This document shows positions 27,365-59,789 of a stretch of DNA of 64,000 nucleotides, piece after piece. The notes beneath the pieces were generated by a model, which did no database searches, was not told where the DNA came from, and saw nothing but the letters and a program-made list of their open reading frames with translations. The translations under genes and the position numbers were made by a program. This DNA comes from Sphyrna mokarran (Eukaryota): positions 10,416,001 through 10,480,000 of the forward strand of contig JAGIQG010000023.1 in assembly GCA_024679065.1 (NCBI GenBank). The letters run 5' to 3'. The stretch's first letter is position 1; each line of letters starts with the position of its first letter.

Positions 27365-27404
27365 ATGGATTTTTCATTTCATTTTTTCGTGATCTCCTTT
27401 GCTG
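27365..27404 (+). CDS. Gene A (CD300/CMRF35/pIgR-like receptor) exon 1: signal peptide MDFSFHFFVISFA
   Basis: ATG in good Kozak context (gatATGg), 13 hydrophobic codons + 1 nt, strong donor GCTG|GTAAGT. Phase 1 matches the IgV exon at 38142. Same 40-nt length as the gene B leader. Confidence 0.75.
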
Positions 27405-27522
27405 GTAAGTAACAAACAATTAATGTGAATGTGCATAGTGAAGTGAGAATGGAGTGTGTTTGTGTAAGTTTTAAAAGAACATTAATTTGTAGCAGATTTT
27501 TCTTCTGGAATTCTTCTAGAAT

Positions 27523-28025
27523 TGGGTGGCATGGTGGCACAGTGCTTAGCACTGCTACCTCACAGTGCCAGGTACCTGGTTTCAATTCCAGCCTCGGGTC
27601 ACTGTCTATGTGGAGTGTGCACTTTTCTCCCCGTATTTGTGTGGGTTTCATTCAGGTTCTCTGATTTCCTCCCACACTCCAAAATGTGCAATTTGGGTGG
27701 GTTGGCCATGCTAAATTGCCTCTTAGTGTCCTCAGATGTGTTGGTTAAGTGGGTTGGCCATACTAAATTGCCTCTTAGTGTCCTCAGATGTGTTGGTTAG
27801 GTGAGTTGGCCATGCTAAATTGCCTCTTAGTATCCTCAGATGTGTTGGTTAGGTGGGTTGGCCATGCTAAATTGCCTCTTATTGTCCCAAAAGTTTAAAT
27901 GGATTAGCCATGGTGAATGTTTGGGTTTGCAGGGAAAGGCCTGAGTGAGATGCTCTGTCAGAGAGTCAGTTCAGACTTGATGGGCCAAATGGCATCCTTC
28001 TGCACTGCAGGGACTCTATGATTCT
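27523..28025 (+). mobile_element. HE1 SINE with an internal 52-bp tandem repeat (about 3.7 copies, 27697-27887)
   Basis: ttggccat recurs at 27702, 27754, 27806 and 27858. Confidence 0.85.
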
Positions 28026-28887
28026 AATTTATTGTCTCCTTCCTTAGTTTGTTAATTTTCCCTAATCAATTTTCCTTTAAGTCCAATTCCCGAGGTACAG
28101 GAACAGGAAAATCCAACACAGTGTGTCCCTCAGCTATGGCTCAGTGGAGGGACAGGTGGTTGTTGGGTTCAAACCCCACTCCAGGGACTTAAGCATGCGC
28201 AACATGGTAATGTTTCTGTTTAGTCATCAAGGATCAGACTTCCCAGCTGGAATTCTGGGGTGGACGAGGCTCACTGGAGAGCATTCTCCATTGTCCTCGG
28301 GTGGAATCTTACACTCCGACAGATGAGGCGGTAGAATTCCAGCACCCATCTCCCCGACCAGCTGCATGTGAAAGATTTCGCAGATTTGCTGAGCGTATAT
28401 TGTCTGTTCTATTTGTTCTTTAGACCAAACTGTGACTACACTTTCAGCGTATGAGTTGGCTGCAAAGGATTCAGAGGGTCACAAAAGCTGCTGTGAGGAT
28501 GCAAGTCTTTCATTTCAGTGCACCTGTCTTGTATATTTTATATAAATATTTGCTCAAATAACTGAAGCCTATGAATTTCTGCAGATACTCTCGGGGAGGG
28601 CAAACTCCCATTCTTGTCATAATGACTTTTACCTGAACACTCTGTATACTCTGCAGCCTCACAGTGCAAGAGTATAAAAAACCTAAACGGCATTGTTAAA
28701 AAAACAAAGTAATGAAGACAGTGATCTCTGCTGAGCCTAGAAATGGATGGAATCATGAGGGACTGTCAATCTTGGCTCTGGTTTAAAAGTCTTGGCCTGA
28801 ATATTTCACTAGGCAGGCATGCACACTTCGTGGACCAGAAGCAGGCATGAAACGCATTCCTGGCAATGGTGGACCCTGGATTATTTT

Positions 28888-29222
28888 AGAAGTTTATTTA
28901 TTAGTGTCACAAGTACGCTTATATTAACAGTGCAATTAAGTTACATTAGTATTGCAATGAAGTTACATTAATATTGCGGTGAAGTTACTGTGAAAATCCC
29001 TTAGTCTCCTGTACCTGTTCGGGTACACTGAGGGAGAATTTGGCATGGCCAATCCACCTAACCAGGACGTCTTTCAGACTGTGGGGAGAAACGGGAGCAT
29101 CCAGAGGAAACCCACGCAGTCACAGGAAGAACGTGCAGTCTCCGCATAGACAGTCATCCAAGCCAGGAATTGAACCCAGGTCCCTGGCGCTGTGGGACAG
29201 CAGTGCTAACAACTGTGGCACA
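28888..29222 (-). mobile_element. V-SINE with type B tail (tail has a triplicated 22-bp unit)
   Basis: Consensus-like; atta..a.tgc..t.aagttac repeated three times. Confidence 0.8.
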
Positions 29223-29957
29223 CATTGGGTGTCTCTCTGTGCATGTTTCTCCTCGTGTCTATGTGGGTTCTCTAGGCTGGCCAATTAATAGCCGTTTCTG
29301 GTGTGAAGAACATTCTGGAAGAGGCTGAGTGCTACCAGGAGGGTGGGTTCCAAGGAAAGCAAGAGCGCGGGCTGGCATTTCCAATGTGCCTCTTCTGGGG
29401 CAATGGCTGCTATGGAGCTGTCTCAAGGAGTGCGCCCCCCATGAAAAATAAATATGTGTTAAAACTATGCCACTTGTATCTGGGCAACACGATCACCCAC
29501 AGAACTCAATTCCTGGATGCATTTATTCATTTTATATGACCCCTGACCTTTTCATCCTACCCTGGGTCAAGGGTGCTAATTGGCCCACTTGACTGGCTAA
29601 AATCCTTGTTATAGAATTATAGAATGCCTCTATAGCAAAAGGAGGCCATTCAGTCCATCGAGTCAGTTACTGATTAATTATTCCAATTGGCAAAGGCACG
29701 ATGCCATCAGGAAACACCTTCTGGTGCAATTCTGATGTGTTTCCAGGCCAGATAGTGCCTGAAATTTAAACCTAAAATTCTGGCCATGAGAATAGGTGGG
29801 AAAGAAAATTGCTGGTGTGTGAAAAGTTGTTCGTGCTTCAATCATTCATTATTTTACAATTACTGCAGCACAGAAACAATCAGAGGCCTTTTCATCTTTG
29901 AACTATTCTGCCTCGGAATGCTATTGAGGCCCCCCGTTGCTAAGTCTATCCAAGTAT

Positions 29958-30765
29958 TAACAAAGAACAAAGAAAAATACAGCACAGGAACAGGCCCTTC
30001 GGCCCTCCAAGCCTGCATCAGTCATGATGCCCTAACTAAACTAAAAAAAAACCTTCTGCTCTCACTCATTCCGTATCCTTCTATTCCCTCCCTATTGGAG
30101 TCAATGGGATCAAAGGTTATAGGGAAAAAGCAGGATTAGGCTATTGTGTTGGACGATCAGCCATGATTTAGAGAAGATAGAAGCAGGGAAGTTGCTTCGA
30201 CTGGGCAGGTGAAACTAGAACTAGGGGGCATGGCCTCAAAATAAAGGGGAAGCAGATTTAGGACTGAGTTGAGGATGAACTTCTTCACACAAAAGGTTGT
30301 GAATCTGAGGAATTCCCTGCCCAGTGAAGCAGTTGAGGCTATCTCATTGAATGTTTTTAAAGCAAGGGTAGATACGTTTTTGAACAGCAAAGGAATTAAG
30401 GGCTATGGTGAGCGGGTGGGTGAGTGGAACTGAGTCTGCAAAAAGATCACTCATGATCTTATTGAATGGCAGAGCAGGCTGGAGGGGTCAGATGGCCTAC
30501 TCCTGCTCCTAGTTCTTATGTTCTTATGTAATGAATGGCGGAGCAGGCTCAAAGGGCCAAATAGCCTCCTCCTGCTCCTATCTTCAATGTTTCTACGTTA
30601 CTTATGTACCCATCCACATGCTTCTTAAATGTTCCTAATGTGCCTGCTTCCATCACTTCCTCCGGCAGCGTGTTTCAAGCTCCCACCACTGCCTGTGTGA
30701 AAAACATCCTCCGCACATCTCCCTTAAACTTTTCCCCTCTCACCTTGAGCCTGTACCCAATTGAG
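29958..30765. mobile_element. Three-level nest of CR1 3' fragments
   Basis: Minus CR1 tail (29958-30095 and 30603-30765) contains a plus CR1 tail (30096-30167 and 30528-30600), which contains another plus CR1 (30168-30527). Confidence 0.7.
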
Positions 30766-32049
30766 ATTGAGATTGACAGATTCCCGGGCATTAAGCGAAT
30801 CTGGGAATACAGGGATAGTTTGGGACATTGGAGTTGAGGTAGATTATTCAGGATTTTATTGAAGGATGCAGTCTCAAGGGGCTGTATTGCCTTCTCCAGC
30901 TTCTATTTCTTATGTTACGTCCTTAGAGTATATTAAAAGGTCAACTCAGCAGTTTGTTCTTTATCTCCCCTCAAGTTCCCTATCATACTTAGCATGGGGA
31001 TGTGAAATCTGGCTGTCCCCTTCCTCCCTCCCTGCCCAGTGATACGTCTATAACTGAGGCCAGCCTTCCACTCTTATCAGGAGTAAATCCCATGTGCAGG
31101 GACATGTCTGGAATATTGAGTACAGTACCAGTCACCTAAGCATTAAGAAGTATTTAGATGTGCATTTGCAATGCCAAGGAGTGCAAGGTTACCCATAGAA
31201 ATCCATAGAATCCCTACAGTACAGAAGGAAGCCATTTGGTCCATCGAATCTACCCCAACCACTATCCCACCCAGACCTCATTCTCACATCCCCACATATT
31301 TACCCTACCAATCACTCTGATAATAGGGTCAATTTGGCATGGCCAATCAACATAACCCGCACATCTTTGGATTGTGGGAGGAAACAAGAACAATCTGGAG
31401 GAAACCCAGGCAGACACAGGGAGAACTTGCCAACTCCACACTGACAATGACCAAAGCCAGGAGTCGAATCTGGGTTCCTGGTGCTGTGAGGCAACAGTGC
31501 TAACCAAGCTGCCACAGTGTCGCCCTAGTAAAAGTAAAGTTTTTTATTAGTCACAAGAAAGGCTTACATTAACACTGCAATGAAGTTACTGTGCAATTCC
31601 CCTAGTTGCCACCGTCTGGTGCCTGTTTGCGTCAATGCAACTAACGAGCACGTCTTTCAGAATGTGGGAGGAAACAGAGTGCCTGGAGGAAACCCACGCA
31701 GACACTGGGAGAACATGCAAACTCCAGACAGCCAGTGAACCAAGCCAGGAATCAAACTGGGTCCGTGGCACTGTGAGACAGCAGTGCTAACCATTGTGCC
31801 ACAGACCCGTCCGCGTGGATCAAGTGCTAGAAAATGGGATTAAAATAGTTGGGTGGTTTGTCCTTGGCCATTTTCTGCACTGTAGATTTCTATGACTTGA
31901 TGATTTACAGCCACAATCCTCTCAAGATTGGAAAATCCTGCCTGAGGTCAATGGATCTTTATGTAGTCCGTGTCTTGCCCACTAAAATTTCCTTGACAGG
32001 GAGGAAGAAGAATTCTGCCCTATGACTCTGTGACCTCATTAATGAATGC

Positions 32050-32520
32050 ATTGGAAGTAATTTGGAGAAGATTTACCATACTAAAACCTGGAATGAGCAC
32101 ATTGTATCATGAAGAAAGCTGGAGAAGCTAGGCTTGTATCCACTAGAGTTTAAAAGAGTAAGAGGCAACTTGATAGAAATAAATCAGATCCTGAGGGGTA
32201 TTGACTGGGGAGATGTGGGGAGGGTTTTATTCTTGTCAAAGAATCTAGAGCCAGGGTCACCATTTAAAAATAAGGGGAGATATGAGTTTTCTCTCACAGA
32301 AATGTGAGTCTTTCGAACTCTCTTCCTGAAAAGGCAACAAAAGCAGGATCCTTGAATATCTGTAAGCCAGAAGTGGATAGATTACTGATACACAAGGAGG
32401 TTGGAGGGTAAAAGGTTATGGGGATCAACAGGAAGCAGGTTTGTGGTAACTGTCAAATCAGCCAGGATCTCATGAAATAGAGTAGCAGGCTCAAGGGGCT
32501 GAATGGCCTACTCCTGCTGT
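32050..32520 (+). mobile_element. CR1 LINE 3' fragment
   Basis: Degenerate RFT.L.PG..KLGLY.LE motif and CR1 tail. Confidence 0.75.
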
Positions 32521-32544
32521 TTGCTCACATGTGCATAAGTTCAT

Positions 32545-32663
32545 GGGCAGAATTCTCCAATCACGCTCCAATCTAAAAGCCTGAAATTCCCCTCCGACTG
32601 TCAATGGGATGTCACCCGCCCGTCAAAATTCCCATGGTGGACAGGATGGGAGAATTCCGGCCC
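32545..32663. mobile_element. Short MITE-like element with GGGC/GCCC terminal inverted repeats
   Basis: gggcagaattctcc...ggagaattccggccc. Similar roughly 120-bp elements at about 24826-24955, 31890-32020 and 59500-59622. Confidence 0.55.
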
Positions 32664-33357
32664 ATATGTATGTGGAGAGTTGGCGGGCAATCTGATTGGC
32701 TGCCAGCTCTGTAGTCCCAGCATGCCATGAGACAGGAGCAGCTCAGACTACAACCGGCCCTCAAGATGAGGGTGAGTTTAAAGAGGAGTCCAGGGATTTG
32801 GGGAAGGATAGGTGCAAGGCTCCAGAAGGGAGGAGGAGTGGAGGAGAGGGGGCTATCATGTTAGAAAGGCCAGGGGGAGAGGCTTAAAAATGAGGGAGGA
32901 ATAGTCATCTTAGTGGCAGTGCCCCTGATGAGCACAGTGGAACTCCCCTCCTCCCCACCACCCCAAAAAGGTACAGAGTTAGCTGCCTCAGCTGCCCTGG
33001 AGGTCCAAACCTTGTGGTGGAGGTGGGGTGACTAAGGCACTTAAGTGGTCATTAATTGTCCATATAAGGCAGCAGGGCAAATGTGTTTCCTGATGCCTCA
33101 CCACTCCCTACTGCACCCCCGCTGTAGGACAGGGTCAATCAGGGGTGGGCACGATGGTTGTCAAAAAAGGTGGCCATTTGCTTTATTTAGCCTGCAGCCC
33201 TTTAATATTTTATTCATTCCTGGGGCATGAGTGTTGCTGGCTAGGTCAACATTTATTGTCCATCCCTAGTTGCCCTTGAGAAGGTGGTGCTGAGCTGCCT
33301 GCTTGAAAATCTGTAGTTTGACACATAATGCCGAGACTTCGTAGCGATTAATACAAC

Positions 33358-33688
33358 TGGGGTGGCACGGGGGCACAGTGGTGAGCACTGCTGCCTCACA
33401 GTGCCAGGGACCTGAGTTCGATTCCTGGCCTCAGGTCCCTGTCTGTGCAGAGTCTGCATGCTCTCCCCATATCTGCATGGGTTCCTTCCGGGTGCTCTGG
33501 TTTCCTCCCTTAATGCGAAGATATGCAAGTTAGGTGATTGACCATGCTAAATTGACCCTAGTGTAATGGGATTAGTAGGATAAATATATTGTGCTCGGGG
33601 AATAGAGCATGGATGGGATTGTGGTTGGTGCAGACTCAATGGGCCAAATGGCCTCCTTCTGCACTGTGGGGATTCTATGATTCTATGA
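33358..33688 (+). mobile_element. HE1-type V-SINE (left arm of an inverted duplication)
   Basis: Shares diagnostic changes and its 5' flank with the copy at 34610-34918. Confidence 0.85.
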
Positions 33689-34609
33689 ACTGAGTGGTTT
33701 GCTCAGCCATTTCAGAGGGCAGCTCTGAGTCAGCCACATTGCCGTGGTTCTGCAGTCAGAACACTTTGAATGCACAAGTGGTGGGGGGAGGCAGTAATAT
33801 CCACCCAAGAAATCACCAAAATAGTTTTGAAAGCCTGACCCTGTTTTGCTAATCAAGTGCTGATCTTGCGGCCGTGGGTTTAAAGAAACTGCTTCCCCCT
33901 CATTCAGATTTACCGATAAGAGTCAGGTGGAGCCGCAGAAGAAATCAGCACATTACAGCAAATTGCTCATCCTGTTTGAGGTTTCAGTCAAACCAACAAA
34001 CAAAACTACTGCCTACACCCGACACCACATCAACTGCAGCGGAAAACCACAGTACTTGTATCGTCAGGTCCTGTGTTACTCAGCCTGTTGTATAATCGAG
34101 CAGTGTGGGTCTTCCACTCCAGGCAGTGTCCCTGTTATTTGCTGTGTCACTTGAAGCAGGCCTGTGAGGCACCATCCTGAACTGGATGAATTTAACCCAC
34201 AGCGAGTGCAAATTGGATAAGGTACCATCGAAACACAGAAGATAAGAGCAGGGAGGAGGCCATTTGGCCCTTTGAGCCTGCTCCACCATTCATCATAATC
34301 ATAGCTAATTGTTCAACTCAATAGCCTAATTCTGCTTTTCCCCCCCATAACCTTTCATCCCATTCACCGCAAGTGCCACATCTAACACCCTTTGAATACA
34401 TTCAATGTTTTGGCATCAACTACTTCATGAATTCCACAGGCTCACCACTTTCTGGGTGGAGAAATGTCTTCTCATCTCCATCCTAAATAGTCTGTCTTGA
34501 ATCCTCAGACTGGGGGGGGAAGTGAGATACCCACAGGGGTGCAGTTTTCCTTATTGTTTGGCTCAGACAGTGTGTACTAGTGTGGTCTGCTTTTCTTGCC
34601 ATATTATAG

Positions 34610-34918
34610 AATATTAGAATCCCTACAGTGCAGAAGGAGGCCATTCGGCCCATTGAGTTTGCACCAACCACAATCCCACCCAGCCCCTATCCCCATAGTC
34701 CCACTTATTTATCCAGCTAATCTCTCTGACATTAAGGAGCAATTTAGAGTGGCCAATCAACGTAATCCGCACATTTTTGGATGGTGAGAGGAAACCTACA
34801 TGGACACGGGGAGAATGTGCAAACTCCACACAGACAGTGACCCAAGCCAGGAATCGAACCTGGGTCCCTGGCACTGTAAGGCAGCAGTGCTCACCACTGT
34901 GCCCCCATGCCACCCCAG
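34610..34918 (-). mobile_element. HE1-type V-SINE (right arm of an inverted duplication)
   Basis: Shares diagnostic changes and its 5' flank with the copy at 33358-33688. Confidence 0.85.
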
Positions 34919-37900
34919 CTGTATTAATCACTACAAAGTCTCGGCATTGTGGGTCAAATACTGAAGAAGAAAAGAATCCTTGAGGTGCACCACACCATCA
35001 CACTGGTGGATGGGACGTGAAAAAGCCAGCAAGGGCAGGTTTCCAGAGATTTTAAAAAGGATGCTCAATCTCCAGTTAAAAAAAAAGGAACCCTCACCCC
35101 CACACACAGAGACCCCACCCCCACTATGCACAAAGAGACTCCCCCACATGCAATGGGTAAGTTCCCACTTCCTCCCCCCCCGCACCCCAACACCACCCAT
35201 GGGAACCCTCCCACCTTCACAGACTGGGGAATCACACCCTATAAGGACACTGGGAAGCCTGCTCCCTATGGAGACTCCCAGAGGAATCTCCCTTTCCCCT
35301 ATCTGGGTACTGCCCCCCGACATCCTGACACTGCCCCCATGGTAAACAGAGGTACAAAATTCTAGACTGTGGAAAGAGGTCATTTGGTCCATCATGTCTG
35401 CACCAGCTCTCCAAACTAGCATCATGACTTAGTGTCATTCCCCTGCCTTGCCCCTGACCCCATACCCTTGCACATTGTTTCCATACCAATAATCATCCAA
35501 TGCCCTCTTGCATGCCTCGATTGAATCTGTCTCCACCACATTTCCAGGCAGTGTATTTCCAGACCCAAACCACTCATTGCGTGGATACGTTTTTGTCACA
35601 GCACACTTGTTTCTTTTGCAAATCCCTTTCAGTCTCTGCCCTTTCATTCTTTAACCGGCAGGAACAGTTTCTCACCGTCTACTTTGCCAGCCCCAGCCCC
35701 CTCATGATTTTGAACATCTCTATCAAAGCTCCTCTTAGCCTTCTTCTCTGTAAGGAGAATAGTCCCAATCTCTCCAATGACTCTGAGGTCTAGTTAGTGT
35801 CTTGCGTAAGTTCAGCATTACCTTGCTCTTGTACTCTATGCTTCTATTAATAAAGCCCGGAATACAATTGCTTTTCTTTTCACTAACTGCTCTTTAGGAT
35901 TCTCCTTCTTCGCGTACTGTGTCTTAACAGGACATTGGTGACCAGGGGTTCCATTGGATTCCTTGATTCTCCTTCAGGCTAAAGTGTTTTGCCATTATCT
36001 TCTTGCAGAATGGCCACCTGTCAGCTTTCCTACTTTTGTTGCCTTATCTCACGTATGTTGGAGGAATTTACCGTCTGTTAACTAATCTGTTTGGCCATGA
36101 TCTGAATTTTGCTTTCATGTCCTAGAGTGGGACTTGAACCCAAAGTTCCTGGCCTAGAGATAGGGATGCTAATCACTGCAACTAGACCATCTTCTCCCTT
36201 TAAGATCAGATTATTGAAATCGGTAGAATGAGGAAAGATTGTGAGTGAGTAAGAAAAATAAATGCCTGGTTGGACATTGCCAATAAGGATGCCCACTCTC
36301 AGAGTAATGGTCTCCCCTTGATATTCCATCCCTTATTACACTAGAATCAGAAGGTTGAATTTTATTTCAGAGGCAAATGCCCCATGACCCGGGCTGAAAG
36401 TGAGAGGTGAACCTGATTGGCTATAGCCAATTAAATGGCCACCACTGGGGCTGTTATCCATAGTAACCCCACAAAAACTGAGGCCAAACCTGGAAATTAG
36501 CAGCTCTGATGCCTCAACAGCGTCATTAGTGGCAGTGGCCATTAATGGGGCTGCACCTGGAGGATGAGGGCATATCGATGGCCATGCACAAAGACAGGAA
36601 AATGATGCCTGGGTGTGCCAATATCAGGCTGGCACGCAGACCCCAACAGGATCAGTGGGAGTGGGAGGGGGGAGTTCACAGAGAGGAGACAACACCCCTG
36701 CTACTGGGTGGAGAAGGCTCATGGAGTTTCCAAAAAGCTGTCCCCAGAAGACAACAGGAGACTACCAGATTGCTCTGGACTATCTCCTCTCATTTCAGCA
36801 TTCTATCCCTGGACACTAATAAAATGTCTATGGAGGACATTGGATATTAAGTAGCTGAACCGGGCTCCCAGTTGACATTGCATGTGCCAACCTTTCTGCC
36901 ACTGACAAAATGGACTTTTGGTGTCAAGGGGTATGGGGAGAGAGTATGGCACAGAAATAGAGAATCAATCATGATCACACTGAATGATGGAGCAGGCTAC
37001 AGGGGCCGAAAGACTTAATCATGTGTACATCCATGTTTTTATAATCATCAGGTATAGGTCCAACAACATCATGTGCCATTTTGCCAGCCTCCTTGCCTCC
37101 CAGCACATTGTCAAAGGAGGATAAAATTCTAACCGTAGTATAGCCACAGAAGAAGGCCAACCAGCTGGCTATATTTTACTGATCTGAGTGCAGGGATCCA
37201 GATAGAAAGATCTCCAATTACAGATTAGCATGGTAGCACTACTGCCTCACAGTGCCACAGATCTGGTTTCCATTCCTAACTCGGGTCACTGTTTGTGTGT
37301 GGAGTTTGCACATTCTCCCCATGCCTGCATGGGTTTCCTCCAGATGCTCTGGTTTCCTTCCACAGTCCAAAGATGTGCTGGTTAGATGGATTGGTCATGC
37401 TAAATTGCCCCTTAGTATGGGGGGGCTAGTTAGTGTAAATAGTGTCAAGAGATAAGGCTTGGGAGGGATTCTAGTCGGTGCAGGCTCAATGGGCCAAATA
37501 GCCCAATTCTGCACCGTAAGATTCTATATTTCTATTAGCGAAAGTGGTTCCATGAGGTAAACTGTGAGCCATAGGAACTTCAAGAAACAATACTTTAGAC
37601 TCTGCTCATTGAGAATTTGAACAATGAGAGTGCGACACAGATACAATAATGATTTTAAAATTTAAACTTTTTTTATTAGTGACACAAGTAGGCTGACATT
37701 AATACTGCAATAAGTTACTGTAAAAACTCTGTAGTCATCAACTCCAGCACGGAGAGAGAATTTAGCATGGCCAATGCACCTAACCTTCCTGGACTGTGGG
37801 AAGGAACTGGAGCAAAACCCGCACAGCCACAGGGAGAATGTGTAAGCTCTACACAGTCAGTGACCCAAACCGGGAATCGAACCCCAGACCCTGGCTTGGT

Positions 37901-38141
37901 GAGGCAGCAATGCTGATTGCTGTGCCACCGTGCTGCATTGTGAACTGTCTTTATTTCAGACTAGTATTAATTTCTGAAGATGAAAAATCCAAAAGTCCTT
38001 CAGACTGCATCATCAGAGTGATCAAAATGAAGGTGTCTGTTTAGGAGTCTTACCGCACATTTTCAAAAATATTCTTTACCTTATTAAACTGTTAAGTTGA
38101 TTTGTGTTTTCTTGTACTTGCTGTACTTTCACACTGTACAG

Positions 38142-38474
38142 TTACTTGCGCTGCATCGAATGGATGGGATATTGTAAATGGAACAGTGGGACAATCAGTC
38201 CATATCAAGTGTCAATATGACAAACATTACAGCAATTATCAAAAGTACTGGTGCAAAGGTGATGACCAGGAAGACTGTGCTATTATAGTGCGAACCAACG
38301 GCCCAAAGAAGACAAGTACTGATGGGAGAATCACCACAGTCACTGACAATAAAACAGGAGAATTTACAGTCACAATGGAACAGTTAACACAGAGCGATGA
38401 GGGCTTGTACTGGTGTGGAATTGAAAGATTGTTAGGGGATCTCCTAAGCCCCGTGGAAATTAAAATCAACAAAG
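38142..38474 (+). CDS. Gene A exon 2: Ig V-set domain, CD300/pIgR/TREM-like
   Basis: Acceptor ...cactgtacAG, donor AAAG|GTAGGA, phase 1-1. Translation (V)TCAASNGWDIVNGTVGQSVHIKCQYDKHYSNYQKYWCKGDDQEDC...DGRIT...FTVTMEQLTQSDEGLYWCGIERLLGDLLSPVEIKINK has the B/F cysteines, C-strand Trp, DxGxYWC and the extra KYWC-x7-C disulfide typical of CD300 and pIgR domain 1. Confidence 0.95.
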
Positions 38475-38709
38475 GTAGGATCTGCATGATTTTATTAATT
38501 GTGTGCATCTGTATAGTTTTATATTGCTTTCAGTATAATTTAGGATTTGTTTTTCAACATTTCCAAAATGATTTTCAGTGGGAAGTTAGGGTAGAAGAAC
38601 TTTGTGATGGGCCCAGGAAGGCAAGTTAATACCCTCCACCAGCTCATGAAAGAAAACTTGTCGGTCGCTTGGCCTTAGGTTTTTTCCTTGCCACTGGTTC
38701 AATCCTAGT

Positions 38710-40246: not shown

Positions 40247-40295
40247 GTCCCAAAGCACTTCTTGCAATCTCTTCATCTGACAAGGAAATTCAAAG
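40247..40295 (+). CDS. Gene A exon 3: short stalk (G)PKALLAISSSDKEIQ(R)
   Basis: tttttaacAG acceptor, CAAAG|GTAAAT donor, 49 nt, phase 1-2, open frame. Resembles the gene B stalk exon (PK...DKE..R). Confidence 0.85.
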
Positions 40296-43775: not shown

Positions 43776-43875
43776 GCAGAAGAATTACCTGTACCATTTC
43801 ATATGGAGTGTTTTACGTTGGATTTTCTTCGCCATTCTGCTGCTTTGGGCCATTTTAGTCAAACTGAAAATGTAA
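43776..43875 (+). CDS. Gene A exon 4: transmembrane exon (R)QKNYLYHFIWSVLRWIFFAILLLWAILVKLKM*
   Basis: cttatcttcatAG acceptor, phase 2 matches the stalk exon. About 21 hydrophobic residues with one intramembrane Arg. TAA at 43873-43875, then a donor CCG|GTAAGT at 43881. Confidence 0.88.
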
Positions 43876-45319
43876 AACCGGTAAGTTATTTTGTGCATTT
43901 AGGCACAAACTATTTACAAAAGTTGTTTATAATCTGCTCATTATAAATACTTGAGGAAGGATAGCAGGATAAGAACAAAATGGCCAGCATTTTACAGCCT
44001 GCCCCACTTGATGGATCCAACTAAACTATAAAATTATGAAAGGCATAGATAGAGTTGACACAGAGTGGTAGATGTCTAGAATGTGCTGCCTGAGTTGGTG
44101 GTGAAAGCAGGTACGACAGGAGTGTTTAAGGATTTTTAGATAAGCATATGAATATGCAAGGAATAGAGGAATTTCTATAGGAGGAAACCAGAACTCAGAG
44201 GAAACCCACGTAGATATCAGGAGAACATGCAAACTTCATGTAGTCACCCAAAGCCAGAACTGAACCTGGGTCCCTGGCACTGAGGCAGTAGTGTTAACCA
44301 CTGTGCCACCATTGCCACTCTGGGATCAAGCCCAGGAAGGGGTGCAGTGACTCATCCTGTCAGTTTGGATCTTATTGGATTGAGCCCAAGATGAGATGCA
44401 AAGTCTTGTTTATCGCACAAGTGTAGGTGAGGGGGAACCATGATTTTACTTAATTTGAATTGGCTTTTCTGATTAGAAATCAAATACTGAAGGACCTCTA
44501 TCAGCTGCTTTGCTGGGGGTTTCTGAATTTGACTATGTGTGCAGATATTTCCAGGGTTTTGCAAAATATGCTGAGGAAACCAAGCAAGGGGACTTTGAGA
44601 GGGCTGAACGAGTGACAGGCTAGAAATCCTTTAAATGCTAAGATCTATCACCTGTTTTCTTGTCTATGTGAAAGCCTTTTATATATGGGTCTGTCCTGTT
44701 TTCACTGTTCTAGTGGGTCCTGTGCATCTCCAGAGTGTGTGGCCTCCTTTGAGGAGTCTTCATCCTCTTCCCGCATCACATCCAATGGGATGCTTAAAGG
44801 TTTTCTGGGAGATGGAAGACATGAATTAGAGCTGTCAAATAAAGTGTTAAATCATCAATGTGTGTGTTTTCATATTTGAGTGGCCATTGAGACCAAGTTA
44901 ACTTAAATAAGTTTTGGATGGAGTATGACTGATTGTTAATTCTGTCATTGTGTATCTGAAGACTTCCAGATCTCCAGATGATCTGACACATTGACACTCA
45001 GCTTATCGCCAGTGAGTCCTTGCCAGAATCTCAGTGTGCAGGTTGTGTGAGGGTCACGTCCAGTTTTCTGCCACTCCCTGGGATTCTGTGATAGCCTCTT
45101 CCTTTCAGGAAAATCTAAGTGATCTCTCAGTGTGAAAAATAGAATATGCGAGAACACAAAGCCATTTGTGGATCATGATGACATTGAATTAAGATGAGGG
45201 TGAGATTCAGTGATGAATGGGAAGGTGAGGAGATGTGTAGACAGAGGGGTGGGTAGGCTTGAAAAGGCAGAGTAAGGAAGGTTGGGATAAGGTGTAGATC
45301 AGGATATACTTGAATGTCA

Positions 45320-48880: not shown

Positions 48881-50989
48881 AGCGCTTTGCATTGGTGCCT
48901 CACACACCAAGGGCCTGTATTCAGTTCTGGCTTCAGGTAATCGTCTCTGGTGTCTGCACATTCTCCCCATGTCTGTGTGGGTTTCCTCCAGGTATTCTGG
49001 TTTCTTTCCACAGTCCAAAGATGTGCAGGTTAAGTTAATTGGCTATGCTAAATTGACCTTAGTGTCAGGGGGATTGGCAGAGTAAGTATGTAGAATTATG
49101 GGAATAGGACCTGGTGAGATTGTGGTCAGTGTAAACTCAATGGGCCAAATGGCCTCCTTCTGCACTGTAATGATTCTGTGATCCAGGTGACACCATCTAG
49201 TAAAGGCACCCAAGTTGCAAATGATTCCCAGTTGATTCCAAGACTCCATTTTCTGTCCTTTTACAAATCCCCTCTTCATGAGAATATATAACCGAACACT
49301 ACAAATAACCAGATGCAAATGTGTTGGGTATGATATTGCATTAGAAGTGGTGAAACAGCTGAAACTGAGACTAATGGGGCTGAGGGAGATGTTACAAAAC
49401 CTAAGAACAAGTGACGGTTGGCTCATGGGGGAGGGGAAGGGAGCAGCTTTGCATAGGAGCAAAAAATGTAAGGGACATTTATAAAAAGGTTAAGGTGGAA
49501 GAGAAAGGTCACAATTTAAAGCTGTTGAACTTAATGTTGAATCCCGAGGGCTGCACACCCATCAAGGGTCAGAAACTTCCAGCCCTGGTCTCAGCAATGC
49601 TAATGATGAACCTATTATCAATTGTTAAAAAAAAAGCATTTATTTCACTATTGCCGACTAGGGAAGGAAATCTGCCATCCTTACCTAGTCAGACCTCCAA
49701 GTGACTCCAGATTCACAGCAATGTAGTTGACTCATAAATGCCCTCTGAGAGGGTCCAGCAAGTTACTGAGTTCAAGGGCAGTTAGAAATGCATCGCCTTG
49801 CCAGGGATGCCCACATCACACAGATAAAATTTTAAAAATCATTATACTTTTCATGGATTAAGAAAGGTTTCCAGATTTTCTGATCCAATGGAATCAAAAA
49901 TTTGTTGGGACTCGGACATTGGAACCGTTTCCAGGTCCAAACCCCACTCCAAGCAATGTGTTGCTTGGAAGGCCACTTTGTGGCCAGGGACAGCTCTCAC
50001 TGACCAATTAAGGAAGGCAAATGGGGGGTTCCCCACGCTGGAGGGCCAATAGGGGTCCCTTCGGCAGTGACAGAGTGACATAAAGATATACGAATGCTGG
50101 AATCTGAAACAAAAACAGAAAATGCTGGAACATCTCAACAGGTTTGACAGCTCCACAGGTATTGTCAGACCGGCTGAGGTTTTCCAGCATTTTCTATTTT
50201 TGAGGGGGAGAGTGACAGCCTGATAGGGAGAGGGAGGATACCTTAAGATGTGGGCACCCTCTCTGGAGTTTCAAAGTGATCCAATAAAAACTGTCCTCCA
50301 TCTGCTGACTTGATTTGTCTGGCTTTGGATAAGATGAGGTAATAAACCGATGCAATCTCACAAAACCTCCATCTTCAGCCTAATGACCAATGTTGATTTT
50401 AAAGGATCAACATTATTTAGGATCCCAGAAATAACTCCTTTCCTCTTCCTTGAAATAATGTGTTGAGATCCACCTGGAGGGCAGCGTGGGATTTCTTGTC
50501 GCACGCATCCCATAAAAAGGCAGCACGTCCCACAGTGCTACATGGGAGTGTCAGCCTCGCTTTCTGCCCTTAGATCCTGGACTGGTACCAGAGCTTTTTG
50601 ACTCCAATGTGAGGACACAATGACTGAGTCGCAGCACGTGTGATTTTGTTTTCTGAAAACTCCAATCAAGAGTATCGAAATTGCGCCTGATCAGGAATTT
50701 GGACAAATTATCCCAAGCAGGAAAATGGCGAGAAGCAAATGAACTGGATCACAAAGCACATCTTATGTACAGAATTTGAATGATTTAATAGAGATTGCAA
50801 AAGCTGTACAGTTTTAACACTGCTTGCAGCAGTTATTCTGTTCCCAACAATTAAACAGTTGATCCAATTCTTCAAACAACACTAAGCGAACAATTAGACT
50901 TTTATATAGCAGCAGAGTGTTGTACCATGAATGCAGTGGTACTTATTTATTCAAACTAGACATGCTGTAAGGTCTGAGGGTGTCACAAC

Positions 50990-51145
50990 TGAAAACTGTC
51001 CTTTCTATTCTCAGTTTTTGCTGTGGTTGTGATCTCACAAGAGCTAAAGGGAAGGAAATGACTGGTTAGATGGTGCAGTGCAGAAACAGGACCACTGAAG
51101 TAAAGATCTGTGTCCGGAAAAGTGGAGCTGTAAAACGTCAAAACA
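50990..51145 (+). promoter_or_regulatory. Putative proximal promoter/5' UTR of gene B
   Basis: RUNX-type TGTGGTT 51022-51028 and purine-rich GGAA (Ets-like) motifs in unique sequence directly upstream of the leader ATG. Confidence 0.4.
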
Positions 51146-51185
51146 ATGGGTTCTATCCTTTTTCTGTCCGTTGCTTTCCTATCAG
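51146..51185 (+). CDS. Gene B (CD300/CMRF35/pIgR-like receptor) exon 1: signal peptide MGSILFLSVAFLS
   Basis: aaaacaATGg Kozak context, 40 nt hydrophobic leader, donor TCAG|GTAAGG, phase 1. Confidence 0.85.
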
Positions 51186-51214
51186 GTAAGGAAGTATTTA
51201 AAAAGATGTTATTG

Positions 51215-51705
51215 CGCAGGAGGGGGTACAGAGGAGCTGCTGCCTGGGTTGAAAGATTTAAATTATGAAGAGAGATTGGGTAGGCTTGGGCCGTTTTCAT
51301 TGGAGCAAAGAAGGGGGCGACCGATCGAGGTGTAGAAGACTGTGAGGGTTGTTGACAGAGTGGATATGGAGCAGCTTTTGCCCTTAATTGAAGAGTCAGT
51401 CATGAGGGGACAGAGGTTCAAGATGAGGGGCAGGAGGATTAGGGGGAAATGTGAGGAAAAGCTTCTACACCCAGAGAGCGGTGATGGTCTGGAATGTGCT
51501 GCCTGGGAGGGTGGTAGATGTGGTTTGCCCTCACATCCTTTAAAAAGTACCTGGATAAGCACTTGGCACATCATAATATCCAGGGCTTTGGGCCAAGTGC
51601 TGACAGATGGGATTAGTTGGGAGTTCAGGTGTTTCTAACGTGTCGGTGCTGACTCGATGGGCCGAAGAGCCTTTTCTTCACAGTATAATTCTATGGTTCT
51701 ATGTT
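51215..51705 (+). mobile_element. CR1 LINE 3' fragment at the start of gene B intron 1
   Basis: NYEERL..LG.FSLEQRR and VDRVDMEQLLP..RGQRFK motifs, plus a CR1 tail. Confidence 0.85.
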
Positions 51706-54319
51706 CTCCTTGGGATTGTTGAAAACATTAAGAATATATAGTTGCGTTAGTCGAGCCCGAAATGAAAACCTTGCGATATTAAGTCAGCTATTGAGAAATA
51801 TCCTTCTGCGTTGCAAAGTTTTGTTATTTTTTGAGATCAGCATTAATTGTCTTTAGGGAAAGGGAATTTTAAAAAATATATCTCCTATTTCACAAAATAA
51901 ATAATACAGCTCAATCTCATTTTAACAAACTTTAACCACCTGATCGAACAATCATTTCCGTTAGTTTTGATTGGTGTGAAGCTAGAAGTTCAGACTTGGA
52001 TGGAGAGAATTTTATGATCAGACAAGATTATTTTTCTGAAGTTGTAATAATGGGATTTTATACCTCCAGCTCAACAACCCTCTTTAAGTATACCGACTTG
52101 TTCAGTTCATCATTCTGGTTATTCATAAAATTTTACTTCGTAAATCAGTTGGATCATATAATGAGTTAGTGTCCAAATACAGTAATTTTCTTAACCTCAG
52201 TGTATTTGCAAAATGGGTGAGAATATTGAAAGTGAATAAGATATTATATTGTAATCATTTGTTTTGAAATCTTTTGAATGCCATGTTCCCTGTGACTTCC
52301 ACAAATGCCAAAGCAAAGCAGGGCAAAGTTTTTAAACCTAAAGGGCAGCACGGTGGCACAGTGGTTAGTACCATGGTCAATGGTTCAATTCCCGCCTTGG
52401 GTCACTGTCTGTGAGGAGTTTAGACATTCTCCCCGTGGCTGTGTGTGTTTCCTCTGGATGTTCCACTTTCATCCCACAGTCAAAAGATGTGCTGGTTAGG
52501 TTGATTGGCCATACAATATTAACCCTAGCGTCAGGGTAAATTAATGGGGTAAATATGTAGTGTTACAGGAATAGGGCCTAGGTGGGATTGTGGTCAGTGC
52601 AAGCTCAATGGGCTGAATGGTCTCCTTCTGCACTGTAGAGACTCTAAGAGCTGTCAAAAATATTTCTAAAGTTTATAGTTTATGACCGTTTATTTAAACT
52701 TTATGAAAGTTTATAGGTCAGTCTATGAGCAGTCAAAAATATTTGTAAAGTTATAGTTTTTAATCGATTTTAATAATGTTGAGATTTTAACCAACGGGCA
52801 ACGTAGTGACAAAATCTGACCAAGTGAGAAATTCCTGTCTTTGGAGATTGTACAAACATGTCACCATGTATATAAACTGAGTAACACAGTCTGATAATCA
52901 TTGATTTACAAGAAAATTTCAACCCCTTATGAGTTAAATAAGCAGAATCGTACAACTCATCAGTGAAACCATTGCGTGACTCAAACTATAGTTCCGACTG
53001 ATTTATTTTAAAATCTGTTTTTAAGTAATGAAATATTTGCTCAACTGATGCAAAGTTCTCGTTGTTTATATTCTGCACCATTGAGATACACTCAACACCA
53101 CCAACAAATAGAGGAAGCCATTTTGCCTCCATTCCAGCCTACTACCTGATTGGGGGGGGGGGACATTCCCCCATCTCCCAACCCCCTCCCGTCACTTTCC
53201 AGTGTGGTATTCCAAGACCTCTGCCAAAAATTGAATTCTGATAATTACGTCAAAGAACACCCCCCCACCACCACCACTCCCTGCACTGGATGGTTTGCAC
53301 TGCCATATTTTACTGCCCACCCACATAAACCAGCTGGGAAGCCCCGTGGACCAGTAGATATGAGATGCAATTGTGGCCTTAAGAGAATGGCACACACATA
53401 CATTGTGTCTTCACAATACTTTCTCTATTATTCTTGGCTCTTCCACTGACATCTAAGGGTAAGTGGGATCAATTCTACTGTGTAAAGGATATAAAACATT
53501 GTTTATAAAGTTTATTTATTAGAGGAACAAGTGGACTTATGTTAACACTGCAATGAATTTACTATGAAAATCCTCTAGTCGCCACATTCCGGCGCCTGTA
53601 CAGGGGGAGAATTTAGCCTGGCCAACACACTTGACCAGCACATTTTTCAGACTGTGAGTAAACTGGAGTACCCAGAGGAAACCCACACAGACAATGTGCA
53701 ACTCCACACAGACAGTGACCCAAGCTAGGAATTGAACCCGGGTCCCTGGTGCTGTGAATAATGCTAAGCACTAGAGACTCTCCCATCGACCAACAACATG
53801 CCACCTTCACCACTACAAAACCAGCATTGGGAGTTCAGAAAATCCCAGAGCTAATGTCTATAATACCACAGAGAAAAAAACAAATGGAAACTACCCCAGA
53901 GACATCATCAATGTGCATCGTAAAGATAACACAGGAAATATCATAGTATCGTAGAATTTCTGCAGTGCAGAAAGAGATCATTTAGCCCATTACATCTACC
54001 CTGACTCTCCAACAGAGCATTTTACCCAGGCCCACCTCTGCCATATCCCTGTAACCGTGCACATTTACCTGATTAATACCCATCACCTACTTGTCCTCAG
54101 ACACAACTCGGCATGGCCAATCCATCAAACCTGCACACCTTTGGGAAGAAAGTCACACAGACATAGGGAGAATGTACAAAATTCACACAGTCACCCAAGG
54201 CTGGAATTGAACCCGGATCCACGGCGTTGTGAAGCGGCAATGCTAACCACTGTGCCACCATGCTGCCCCATCAAGAGGCTTTGTCGGAAATGTGTAGAGG
54301 TAAAGTTAAGGTGTCAGAG

Positions 54320-54490
54320 ATAGTGTACAAACCTCCAAACAACCCATCAACTCAACCGTTGGAGCAGCACCTGTCCCACATGTGGCAGAGTCTACAGATC
54401 ACACACTGGACTTAACAGCCATCAGAAACCCATGGAGCTAAAGTGGAAGCAAGTCATCCTCAATCCAGTGGGACTGCCTGAGAAAGTAGA
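54320..54490 (+). mobile_element. RTE-clade LINE 3' end
   Basis: TCPTCGRVYRSHTGLNSHQ zinc-knuckle-like C-terminus, then caagtcatcctc...gggactgcct tail. Confidence 0.65.
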
Positions 54491-55219
54491 GATAATACGC
54501 CATTCTCTGGAGCTCCTGCAAACTACTCAGATTGCACCTTCTCACAGGCCATGTTAGCCTGTGACAGTACATTCACCAGCCAGTATTACAGTCATTATTA
54601 TACCAACTTCTGACTCCAACATGGATGTGAAGTCATAATTAACCACATCAACATCTCACTTCTTGTTTGTTGAACTCAATAAGAGGAACTCTGAGAACGT
54701 TTAAGAAGGAACAAACCATTTTGCAAAATACCACCACAATGTTCTAGACCACAGCCAGCAAAGTCTCCCAGATGCACTTCCCCACAAAAACTGTAAAAAT
54801 GCACTAAATCTTTGTGGTCTCATTTCTCCTCACTCCTTCCACTTCAACCCTCAGGTCTGTTCTCTCACAAAGTCAGGTCAATCATTCTGAATCTGTCTCT
54901 GCTCCTTCCCTCCCATCAAATTCTGCTTCCACTATATTAGCTCCAGTCCCTTCTTCACTGCAAGATGGCTTTAATCCTGTTCTCCTATTTGTCTGAAGTC
55001 TTATGTCCTGCTACAATGTACCTTCTCACCCATCTCTCAGCTGGATAAAGTGCAATGTAACAGACTCATCAGCAATTTTATTTAAGTTTATTTATTAGTG
55101 TCACTAGTAGGCTTAACACTGTGGTGAAGTTAGTGTGAAAATCCCCTAGTCACCACACTCCAGTGTCTGCTCGGGTGCACTGAGGAAGAATTTAGCCAAA
55201 CCAATGTACACTGGCAGCA

Positions 55220-57200
55220 TAAATAGCGAGTATTAGGGAACAGGGTGGTGGTAAACAATTAAAGGAACATGATTTTCCATGACTTTTCCATAATTTTCTA
55301 AGTTATTTAATGAATCAGAGGAAGGTATATAGTGGAGTTCCCCAGCAGTCAATATTAATTCACTACATTTTTAAATTTTATATTAATGGCCCAGATTTAG
55401 TTGCAACAGGCACAATTTCAACTGTTGCAGATAGACACAAAATTTGGATGCATTGTAAACTGTGAGGAGGATGGTGATAGACATCAATAAGACAGGGCTG
55501 TTGTGGTGGAACAGGCAAGCAAGTGACAAATGAAATTTAAGGCAGAAAATTGGGAAGTGATTCATTTTCAGAAGAATAAAGAGAGACAATGTAAAATAAA
55601 GAATTCAGTTCAAAAGATAATGCAGGAACTGAAGGCACTGTTGCTAAATTTGCAGATAGTACAAAAATTTGTAGAGGAACAGGTCATATTGATGATGCAG
55701 GGGGAGCTGCAGAAGGACTTGGACAGGCTAGGAGAGTGGGCAAAGAAGTGTCAGATGGAATACGATGTGGAAAAATGTGAGGTTACGCACTTTGGAAGAT
55801 GGAATGGAGCCATAGACTATTTTCTAAGTTAGGAAATGCTGAGAAAATCAGAATCACAAAGGGAATTGGGAGTCATTGTTAAGATTCTCTTTAGGTTAAT
55901 GTGCAGGCTCAGTCGGCAATTAGAAAGACAAATGCAATGTTAGTATTCATGTCGAAAAGGCTAGAACACAAGAACAGGGATGTACTTCTGAGACTGTATA
56001 AGTTTTGATCACACCCTATTTGAAGTATAGCGAGCAGTTTTGGGCCCTGTGTTAGAAGGATATGCTGTCCTTGGGAAGGGTCCAGAGAAGGTTCACAAGA
56101 ATGACCCTGGAATGAAGGGCTTGCTGCATGAGGAATGGTTGAGGACTCTGGATCTGTAATCATTGGAATTTAGAAGGTTGAGGAGGGATCTTATTGAAAC
56201 CTATAGATATTGTGAGGCCTGGATAGAGTGGACATGGAGAAGATGTTTCCACTAGGAGGAAAAACTAGAACCAGAGGGCACAACTCAGGCTAAAGAGACA
56301 ATCCTTTAAAACGGAGATGAGGAGGAATTTCTTCAACCAAAGAGTGTGAATCTGTGGAACCCTTTGCAAAAGAAGGCTATGGAGGCTAAGTCATTGAGTG
56401 TCTTGAAGTTAGATAGGTTCTTTATTAATAAGGGAATCAGGGGTTATGAGGAAAAAGCAGGAGAATAGGGATGAGAAAAATATCAGCCATGATTGAATGG
56501 CAGAGTAGAAGCGATGGACTGAGTGGCTTAATTCTGCTCCCATGTCTTATGGTCATATGGTCTTACAGGAACATGGTACCTGGGAGTAAATGAGCACAAA
56601 TCATGTGACAATGTTGAATGAGGAAACGGTTGAAAGGCTACATTGGATCCTTATCTCTTTAATTCCAGGTATAATGTATCACGGCGAGAAGATTATGGTC
56701 AACCTCTGGGAAATGTTGGTGCAGCCTCAATTCAAGCCCAACTCTGGGAGCCAAACTTTGGAAAGGATAGGAAGGTGCTGGAAAGAATGCAGAAAACATT
56801 TACAAGAATATTCCCAGGAATTAGCGACTTCAGTAGCATAGATAAATTGGAGAAGGTTCTGCATAGAGGGGATTGAGAAAAGGTGATCAAAATCATGAGG
56901 GGTCTCGACAGAGCAAAAATGGAAAAATTGAGCCTATTGGTGCAAATGTTGATGAATAGTTGAATGAGATGTTGTGAACCATGTTTATGCAGTGAGTGTT
57001 AGGATCTAGGCTGTACCAGTTGATAGCTGGCGGAAATATATTCAATCATAGTTTCCAAAAGGAAATTGGGTAATTATCTCATAAGAAAAACATTACAGGA
57101 CTGTGAGGTCAGCATGGAGGCAGAGGACTAGCTGAGTTGCTCTCTCACAGAGGAGCCAGAATTGTCATGATGGGCTGAATGGAATCCTCCTGTGCTGCAA
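55220..57200 (+). mobile_element. Nested CR1 LINE fragments (older RT fragment interrupted by a younger copy at about 55630-56565)
   Basis: LQKDLDRLGEWAKKCQMEYDVEKCEVTHFG and other ORF2 motifs, with many stops and frameshifts. Confidence 0.85.
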
Positions 57201-57529
57201 TTATTCAGCATGCCTCACACCAGAAGTCCAATGTTACAGAAGAGTGATGCAAAAGATTTGGAGCATAAGGCAGACAAACTCACTCGAATTTGAGAATATT
57301 AGATATTTTGCTCCCAGCTGTGCTTTTCAAAATTAAATGGGAGCAATTGGGATCTGTGTGAAGGAAATCAGTTGTCCTCACAGATCTGTGCCACATTTAG
57401 CACTCGCACCAATACATTTGACAGTACTCTCAATACTGCTGCACAACCATGAACCTTCCACCTTTAACTTCAGAACTAAACTCTATCTTCTCATCACTTC
57501 CTCCATACCTTCTCTGCTCCTGTACATTA

Positions 57530-58035
57530 GGGGCAGCACAGCAGCACAGTGGTTAGCACTGCTGCCTCACAGCACCATGGACCTGTGTTCGATTCCAGGC
57601 TTGGATCACTGTCTATGCAGAGTTCACACATTCTCTCTGTGCCTGCATGGGTTTCCTCCAGGAGCTCCAGCTTCCTCCACAACCTCTGAAAGCCTGAAAG
57701 ACATGCTGCTTAGGTGCTAAATTCTCCCTCAGTGTACCCAAACAGGCGCCAGTGTGTGGCGACTAGGGGATTTTCACACTAACCTAATTGCAGTGTTAAT
57801 GTAAGACTACTTACAAAATCATAGAATCATAGAATCCTACAATGCAGAAGAGGTCCTTCGGCCAACTGAGTCTGCACCAAACACAATCCCACCCAGGCTC
57901 TACCCCTATATCCCTATATATTTATCCACTACTCCCTCTAACTATGCATTTCAGGACAGTAAGGGGCAATTTCTTAGCATGACCAATCAACCTAACCTAC
58001 TTGTGACACTAATAAATAAACTTTAAATTTAAACT
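57530..58035 (+). mobile_element. V-SINE type B with a reverse type A tail inserted into its tail
   Basis: Insertion at about 57815-57995 flanked by repeated ctactt. Confidence 0.75.
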
Positions 58036-58462
58036 TTATCCGAATCTCAAACAAAATATGTTCACTATTAGAACACCTGGCCTCCCACTTCCGTCTAAAT
58101 TTATATCTCCAGTTTCGGTCTCACTCCTGCATCCTGGACCAGTTCCTCCATGTACACATATTAGGCATGTTTGCCACCTGTTTTAACTTCCACAGGTTCA
58201 GAAAATGACTTTGGATCATAGTGCAAATTCTACCCCCAGACATCCCAACCAGGACTCTATCCCCAGTTCCTCCGAAATCCACAGCAACGTGGAATGTTAC
58301 AGTAGGCCTCTCCCCATCCCTGTCTGGCATCTTCTGCCTGACCCAAATCCCCTTTGTCAAACTAGTGCTTACTTTTTGTTGCATCTTTGTTATTAAAAAT
58401 GTGGAAGAAACAAACTCGGTAAAGTGCTATCAATCAGGTGTCTAAAGCTGAAGCAAGTGCGT

Positions 58463-58738
58463 GCACAGTGGTTAGCACTGCTGCCCCGCAGAGCCAGGGG
58501 CCCAAGCTCGATTCTGACCTGGGGTGACTGTCTGTGTGGAGTCTGCACTGTCTCCCCATGTCTGCATGGGTTTCCTCCCACAATCCAAAGCTGTACAGGT
58601 TAGGTGGATTGGCCAAGGTGGATGTGTGGAGTTATGGAGACAAAGCTGGGGATAGGCCTGGGTAAGATACTCTGTCGGAGAGTCGGTGCAGACTCAACGG
58701 GCCGAATGGCTTCCTTCTGGGCTGTGGGGATTTTATGA
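58463..58738 (+). mobile_element. HE1-type V-SINE (type A tail)
   Basis: Near-consensus sequence. Confidence 0.85.
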
Positions 58739-58972
58739 ACAGCGCAGTCAGTGAATAAACACCAATGAGATAAACAAGAGAGTTCCAGAAAGGACAATGA
58801 AACAGCCAATCAGAGAGGAAGAAAGAGTGGAAAACCAACAAAACACCAGAGAAGGTTCCAGAAAGTGAAAACGAGTGGAACACTCAGAGAGAAGGGAACG
58901 TTAATCTTCTTACATTTCTCTGAAGTGTAAAATTATTGTACTTTAAAATCTATGATATTGTCACACTTACAG

Positions 58973-59308
58973 TTACGTACGCCTCAATAACTGGGCCAAG
59001 TGAAAAGGTTGCGACAGTGGGAGGATCAGTCCAATTCAAGTGCCGGTTTGACACATCTTACCACGATTATCAGAAATACTGGTGCAGAGGCTTTTACCGG
59101 AGGACCTGTACTGTTTTAGCACAAACCCAAAACCATGAGATGAAAAGCCACGATGGCAGAATAAAAATTCGAGCTAACAATGCAAAAGGAGAACTTATAG
59201 TTGATATGGAGCGAATAACGCTAAACGATAAGGGTTGGTACTGGTGTGGAATAGAGAGACCTCACATTCTGGATCTACTAAGTTCCACAGAACTTAAAGT
59301 AAATCAAG
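58973..59308 (+). CDS. Gene B exon 2: Ig V-set domain, CD300/pIgR-like
   Basis: cacttacAG acceptor, CAAG|GTAGGG donor, phase 1-1. Translation (V)TYASITGPSEKVATVGGSVQFKCRFDTSYHDYQKYWCRGFYRRTC...DGRIKI...DKGWYWCGIERPHILDLLSSTELKVNQ. About 45% identical to the gene A domain by hand alignment. Confidence 0.95.
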
Positions 59309-59752
59309 GTAGGGCATAAATACATGTTTATTCGTGTGTGCATATTTAGTGATATATTTATATTATACAACAGATTGATATAATTTAATGTAGACTTATT
59401 TATACATTTTTCAAAATCTCTATGATCCTGGTTTCTCAGTCCAATGTTAAAATGTTAAAAAATAAGGACAAAACCACGGCGGGGGGGGGGGGGGGGGGGT
59501 GTGTTCTCCCATCCCACCCACAACAGGAATTGTAGTGGGCAGGGGGGACCACACAAATGTCCATTGACCTGGGATGGGATTCTCTGGTTTTGGGGCAAAA
59601 CAAGGCGAGAAAATCCCACCCCATATGCTTTGATCATTCTACCTAATGCCGAATTTCCATGAGTAATCGCTGCAAATGTATCTTGATTGGTGAATCTATA
59701 ACATGAGGATAGCAAGTAATCAAATGATATTTTTATACTTCATTTTGAATAG

Positions 59753-59789
59753 CTCCAAAGCCATTTGCAAAAGACAAGGAAAGACTAAG
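59753..59789 (+). CDS. Gene B exon 3: short stalk (A)PKPFAKDKERL(R/S)
   Basis: cattttgaatAG acceptor, CTAAG|GTAAGT donor, 37 nt, phase 1-2, paralogous to the gene A stalk. Confidence 0.85.

Follow-up and report, generated by a model that had tools for sequence, protein, structure and literature searches.

In a 64,000-nucleotide window of the Sphyrna mokarran genome (contig JAGIQG010000023.1, here C805; G000:C805:10416001-10480000), two neighbouring genes on the forward strand, which we call A and B, encode receptors with a single variable-type immunoglobulin (IgV) domain. Genomic sequence, orthologues and domain searches confirm that both predicted genes are real, intact and correctly read, and that they are new members within a known receptor type. 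They are most probably sister single-domain receptors of the CD300/TREM/pIgR kind, to which the skate MDIRs also belong, and likely make up an old activating/inhibitory pair on shark leukocytes. The original prediction, made from the letters of the window, had proposed such a tandem pair and named five splice junctions (27404/38142, 38474/40247, 40295/43776, 51185/58973 and 59308/59753, in window positions); all five are GT-AG, and their phases leave the frames open. It also remarked that an open reading frame (ORF) track shows nothing of these genes but their Ig exons; of the ten stop-to-stop ORFs of at least 130 amino acids (aa) in the window, only two are Ig exons, one from A and one from B. 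The four-cysteine V-domain pattern occurs twice in the six frames of the window and in none of 100 base shuffles.

Gene A begins with a signal-peptide exon of 40 nucleotides (nt) and phase 1 (27365..27404), which has an ATG, a GTAAGT donor and an N-terminus matching that of a Mustelus protein (P0003). The IgV exon of 333 nt (38142..38474) encodes the pair C37-C105, an extra pair C51-C59 and two N-glycosylation sequons. It is followed by a stalk exon of 49 nt and phase 1-2 (40247..40295), recognized by its splice sites and conserved in P0003-P0005, and by the transmembrane exon (43776..43880), in which a W-x-x-L-R-W motif contains Arg155 in the outer part of the helix. The coding part of this last exon (43776-43875) ends in a TAA stop at 43873-43875. 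Spliced from the genomic frames, the predicted product has 173 aa: a single IgV domain with two disulfides, a helix that carries the Arg, and a tail of four residues. This hand assembly is supported by the open frames and by an independent NCBI model from Mustelus asterias with the same 173-aa length and C-terminus. An intact GTAAGT donor lies 5 nt past the stop (43876-43886), which probably implies an intron in the 3' untranslated region. We also considered whether a long tail of A might have been overlooked: when a B-type protein from Pristis was run by tblastn over the whole region, nothing matching a tail turned up in the interval from A to B, where a hydrophobic scan returned only A's own exon and candidates that looked repeat-derived to the eye.

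Gene B is built in the same way up to the stalk, with a signal-peptide exon (51146..51185; 40 nt, phase 1) to which the N-termini of P0006-P0009 match, an IgV exon (58973..59308; 336 nt) and a stalk exon (59753..59789; 37 nt, phase 1-2) supported by its splice sites and by matching orthologue stalks. The identical architecture claimed for the two genes holds to this point but not beyond it, as B carries three more coding exons outside the window. Its third intron runs out of the window (59790..64000), and tblastn with the Pristis orthologue together with a splice check in the flanking DNA located a neutral transmembrane exon of 101 nt (G000:C805:10480458-10480558, 0.5 kb past the window end), a tail exon of 56 nt (10486383-10486438, 6.4 kb past it) and a terminal exon (10488284-10488476, 8.3 kb past it), all on the forward strand. 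The predicted spliced product of 254 aa has a neutral transmembrane helix and tail tyrosines in VTYATV, TYDNV and TEYTTV. We take VTYATV to be an immunoreceptor tyrosine-based inhibitory motif (ITIM) and TEYTTV to be the corresponding switch motif (ITSM), both in the terminal exon. Because of the neutral helix and this tail, B is predicted to be the inhibitory-type partner of A, from whose last coding exon it lies 7 kb downstream; the ITIM-bearing partner for which the original prediction would have inspected the flanks is thus predicted to be B itself, something that the letters of the window could not show. The NCBI models P0006 (Mustelus) and P0024 (Stegostoma) fuse B with a two-domain gene downstream of it (in S. 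mokarran at 10503635-10521463), so that the product has two transmembrane helices; the likely cause is a fusion made in annotation or a read-through transcript.

The V domains themselves agree with the family call to the CD300, pIgR and TREM group. Both score above the cut-off for Pfam PF07686 (V-set; E 5.5e-17 for A, 5.5e-15 for B), and the best single-domain match in the PDB is CD300LF/CLM-1 for each (E 9e-19 and 7.5e-19), followed by CD300A/C, pIgR domains, NKp44, TREM2 and FCMR. The predicted structure of the A domain (predicted local distance difference test, pLDDT, 91) has the V-type strand order; with it, Foldseek placed CD300lf on top (TM 0.86, 34% identity), and all 37 rows listed were CD300, TREM, NKp44 or pIgR. 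The KYWC-x7-C and YWCGIE motifs of the original prediction are present in both domains; both cysteine pairs occur in B too, which has no N-glycosylation sequon in its IgV exon. WC-x7-C, of the Cx6-9C class, follows the C-strand Trp in A, B and every aligned orthologue, and from this cysteine pair we infer a second disulfide in both. According to one preprint on NILT receptors, the Cx7C motif is common to these receptor families and does not settle orthology (bioRxiv 10.1101/2022.04.21.489081). In the ESM Atlas, the Mustelus orthologue of A falls with 'pIgR-like' and 'CMRF35-like' clusters (0.92-0.93).

Orthologues attest to the age of the pair. Three of four candidates passed as orthologues of A, with 173 aa in Mustelus, 174 in Heterodontus and 175 in Heptranchias; NCBI names each of them CMRF35-like, and all three keep WS[VI]LRW and the same tail-less end. 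For B we identified orthologues in Pristis, Rhincodon, Carcharodon, Pristiophorus and Mustelus, with B-type domains also in Stegostoma and Scyliorhinus; all six orthologue sequences (five species) retain the ITIM as well as the tyrosine motif at the end of the tail, and the middle tyrosine is lost in Rhincodon. Against Mustelus, the A domain is identical at 92/109 positions and the B domain at 105/110, which by itself would point to a shark probably close to Mustelus; A is evolving faster than B in this comparison, judged by these two alignments. In a tree of 82 IgV domains, A and B together form a clade with support of 100/99, within which the A (98/89) and B (100/97) subclades are separate; a 47-row tree recovers A+B with 90/99. 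The larger tree keeps 82 of 128 domains; what was dropped were 24 of the 26 array domains that are near-identical, and 22 rows that were redundant or divergent. T-cell-receptor-like V segments from contig C994 served as outgroup only, and neither tree contained TREM, FCMR, TMIGD3 or MDIR sequences. Since the A and B subclades each span shark lineages, the duplication, as read from these trees, is older than the split between galeomorph and squalomorph sharks. The phylogeny that had been proposed as a check thus recovers A and B as sister clades but does not join them to the first domain (D1) of pIgR/FCAMR: in neither tree do they fall within the clade of D1 domains of the pIgR/FCAMR type (95/96 in the 47-row tree). 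A/B and tetrapod CD300 (98/95, 82-row tree) form separate clades, and the backbone, resting on 110 columns, is not settled in either tree. Little-skate 'pIgR-like' domains group with other members of the cluster that surrounds A and B (82-row tree).

How might the two receptors work together? A would be unable to signal alone; Arg155 would pair with an acidic residue of an adaptor carrying an ITAM (a tyrosine-based motif for activation in immunoreceptors), which would trigger Syk. An Arg in the outer part of the helix typically goes with FcR-gamma, as in FcaRI, NKp46 and LILRA, and the best guess for A's adaptor is therefore one of the FcR-gamma type. B, in turn, would recruit SHP-1/SHP-2 via VTYATV and TEYTTV and so damp activation. 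CD300 and TREM receptors bind lipid or cell-surface self or damage cues, and conserved cues of this kind, not antibody, are our best guess for the ligand. In the sequence alignment, the two extra cysteines enclose an acidic loop in A but a basic one in B, which suggests that their ligands may overlap rather than be identical. The design proposed for A, a charged helix with a short tail and an ITAM adaptor, is described as the standard stimulatory one in PMC4810170, which also notes that fish adaptor choice does not always obey the mammalian rule; FcR-gamma is for that reason only a best guess.

Several points weigh against this activating/inhibitory reading. The catfish receptor LITR 2.6b binds its adaptor without needing a charged residue (PMC4810170), so the charged residue alone does not fix A's partner, and Arg155 lies near the outer membrane face, where it could be structural. 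An ITAM profile search of the genome found no adaptor, but its controls gave no match either. The A and B domains share 49 of 110 positions (45%), which is low for a pair with one ligand, and no batoid orthologue of A was present among the four candidates examined.

The alternative that survives best, though we hold it to be unlikely, is that A does not signal and serves as a decoy, in adhesion or in ligand capture, its Arg merely anchoring the helix at the membrane surface. The 45% identity to B would fit this, as would the fact that A is nearly tail-less even against other Arg-type members of the cluster, whose transmembrane exon splices onward in frame. Yet the Arg sits in a motif that recurs. 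Among the transmembrane exons listed in the cluster, at least 21 and to be read as a lower bound, 7 have W-x-x-[LIFV]-R-W, an eighth matches these at 96% DNA identity, another carries a Cys where the Arg would be, and the remaining 12 are neutral-type; the motif is absent from all 12 neutral-type exons, B's included, and is present in little-skate and sturgeon proteins too. Such a distribution speaks against a role in anchoring alone.

Still less probable is that A and B are IgM Fc receptors, shark forerunners of pIgR, FCAMR and FCMR. Their domains are clearly similar to those of pIgR, and the same contig has matches to IL10, SARG, YOD1 and PFKFB, which we take to be neighbours of PIGR in human. 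However, CD300LF outscores pIgR D1 per domain in the PDB search (70.8 vs 37-44 bits), the first complementarity-determining region (CDR1) of pIgR D1 is longer, leaving A with a gap of two residues in the alignment, and both genes fall outside the D1 clade. Moreover, the cluster lies 5.6 Mb from IL10, and the position beside IL10 is taken by another IgV gene. Tree, CDR1 and position together make an Ig-Fc receptor role unlikely, and since A and B do not group with pIgR/FCAMR D1, they are less informative on the origin of pIgR than had been implied. It is very improbable that we are looking at decayed genes or at a product of the hand assembly, A's stop being a recent nonsense change: the stop does lie just ahead of an intact splice donor, but all frames are open, the A domain is modelled with high confidence, and the orthologues, which come from three shark lineages distant from one another, stop at the same point, which led us to reject a recent nonsense origin of the stop.

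We would like to place the proposed activating/inhibitory pair of A and B into the context of known systems. The MDIRs of the clearnose skate are described as multigene activating and inhibitory receptors resembling CD300, TREM and pIgR (PMC3031540, citing Cannon et al. 2006, PMID 16738934), and the cluster around A and B shows the same mix, including many-Ig-domain genes. This likeness is to MDIR as described, and none of the 30 proteins that we looked up was named MDIR. The NCBI entries 'CMRF35-like molecule 2/7' (XP_078098259.1, XP_067913491.1, XP_067863719.1) are one-to-one orthologues of A with 60-84% domain identity, and the Pristis, Rhincodon and Carcharodon entries called 'CMRF35-like molecule 1' are those of B with 59-96%, in both cases with the same length and layout; the names are automatic assignments. 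Given the MDIR description and these named orthologues, the receptor kind is not new, and A and B are new members of it. Our literature search turned up no publication on the two genes, most subscription papers being beyond its reach. Mammalian CD300/CMRF35 molecules are alike in being the best single-domain sequence and fold match, with two disulfides and paired activating and ITIM members; they differ in that tetrapod CD300 forms its own clade in the 82-row tree (not settled in the 47-row tree) and has other flanking genes. Activating CD300s mostly use a Lys for DAP12, not an Arg-Trp motif. The receptors pIgR, FCAMR, FCMR, TREM and NKp44 share the domain type of A and B within the double-disulfide Ig superfamily. 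Flowers et al. (2021) reportedly found that cartilaginous fish have one double-disulfide Ig cluster with linkage to the pIgR region of human, presumably the cluster of A and B; in S. mokarran, the direct neighbours of the cluster correspond to genes of human 1p13.3, and the IL10/SARG block lies 5.6-6.3 Mb away on the same contig. Sharks are the oldest living animals with antibodies, so the origins of CD300, TREM and Ig-transport receptors can be read from the innate receptor clusters of sharks. With the cluster type known and the orthologues annotated, the gain from the finding as such is small; two things are notable, namely how old the A/B pair is, which makes it a clean and long-conserved one on which to test adaptors and ligands, and a solitary IgV gene next to the IL10 locus.

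The inference that A and B belong to a paired-receptor cluster is upheld by its Ig exons, its Arg-type and neutral transmembrane exons and the shark orthologues. A search of the genome placed 60 of 62 matches within 9.95-10.67 Mb of C805, and when the DNA of the cluster was searched iteratively, 62 Ig exons were counted across some 720 kb, two of them with stops; a turtle CD300 query had 57 of its 64 matches in the same cluster and a rabbit pIgR D1 query 52 of 59. Several tail exons with tyrosine motifs are present, and 26 of the 62 domains are without the first Cys of the extra pair, which leaves an unpaired Cys. On the reverse strand, tandem arrays of 10 (10054305-10081970) and 14 Ig exons (10160687-10196772) probably represent giant multi-domain receptors; no transmembrane exon for the 14-domain array was found in the cluster scan. 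At 10537340-10570900, near-identical Ig exons feed an Arg-type gene (transmembrane exon at 10545094) and a neutral, tyrosine-tailed gene (transmembrane exon near 10565700), by its sequence a recent activating/inhibitory pair, in contrast to the old pair of A and B. A run of 100 N at 10219157-10219256 means that domain counts in the cluster may be incomplete.

To the left, the cluster is flanked by G-alpha-t-like and G-alpha-i-like genes and to the right by AHCYL, GST and AMP deaminase genes, with the best PDB names being gustducin for the G-alpha-t exon, AHCYL1 (by a thin margin over AHCYL2) and AMPD2. Table 1 of PMC9394163 gives the human 1p13.3 run as GNAI3-GNAT2-AMPD2-GSTM-AHCYL1, onward to ATP5F1 and TMIGD3. 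The neighbours of the cluster appear to match this region, with paralogue assignments inferred, and not the CD300 locus. The latter is presumably of the 17q25 type in human, with NHERF1 and RPL38 as neighbours; EBP50/NHERF (EBP50_C) matches lie on contigs C783 and C749, not on C805. Elsewhere on C805 are matches to FOXP (1.5 Mb) and NFYA (8.27 Mb), which we take to be neighbours of TREM in human, as well as the IL10 family (16.27 Mb), ATP5F1 (16.43 Mb) and SARG/YOD1/PFKFB (16.98-17.06 Mb).

Between the IL10/IL20-like genes and ATP5F1/WDR77-like exons lies the lone single-IgV gene, on the reverse strand (G000:C805:16409819-16420021; L173:4692-5021, L167:9819-9926); the IL20-like exons beside it were identified by eye, without a Pfam match. 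Its domain lacks the first canonical Cys and has a Cys in place of the C-strand Trp, and its predicted transmembrane exon carries a Lys. In the Atlas, an FCAMR-like cluster ranks first for it (0.92), level with a CMRF35-like one, and its placement in the tree is not settled. No such Ig domain was found in 16.90-17.09 Mb of C805; 16.46-16.90 Mb lay outside the search. Its position would be the meeting point of the human PIGR/FCAMR and TMIGD3 neighbourhoods, and it is a better candidate for a pIgR/FCAMR ancestor than A and B. A broader but tentative scenario is one that we regard as possible without favouring it: A and B could have been held as a fixed one-to-one pair across shark evolution (about 250 million years), amid a cluster of fast turnover, by a conserved self or damage ligand, on a contig that keeps an ancestral chromosome joining the TREM, PIGR/FCAMR and TMIGD3 neighbourhoods. 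The positional ancestor of PIGR/FCAMR/FCMR and TMIGD3 could then be this lone gene, flanked by the IL10 cluster and ATP5F1, rather than the large cluster.

Finally, the T-cell-receptor-like V segments on C994, identified as such by eye, are present in two copies 100 kb apart with identical translation (C994:5613783-5620184 and 5713729-5720131), reflecting either a recent duplication or an assembly duplicate.

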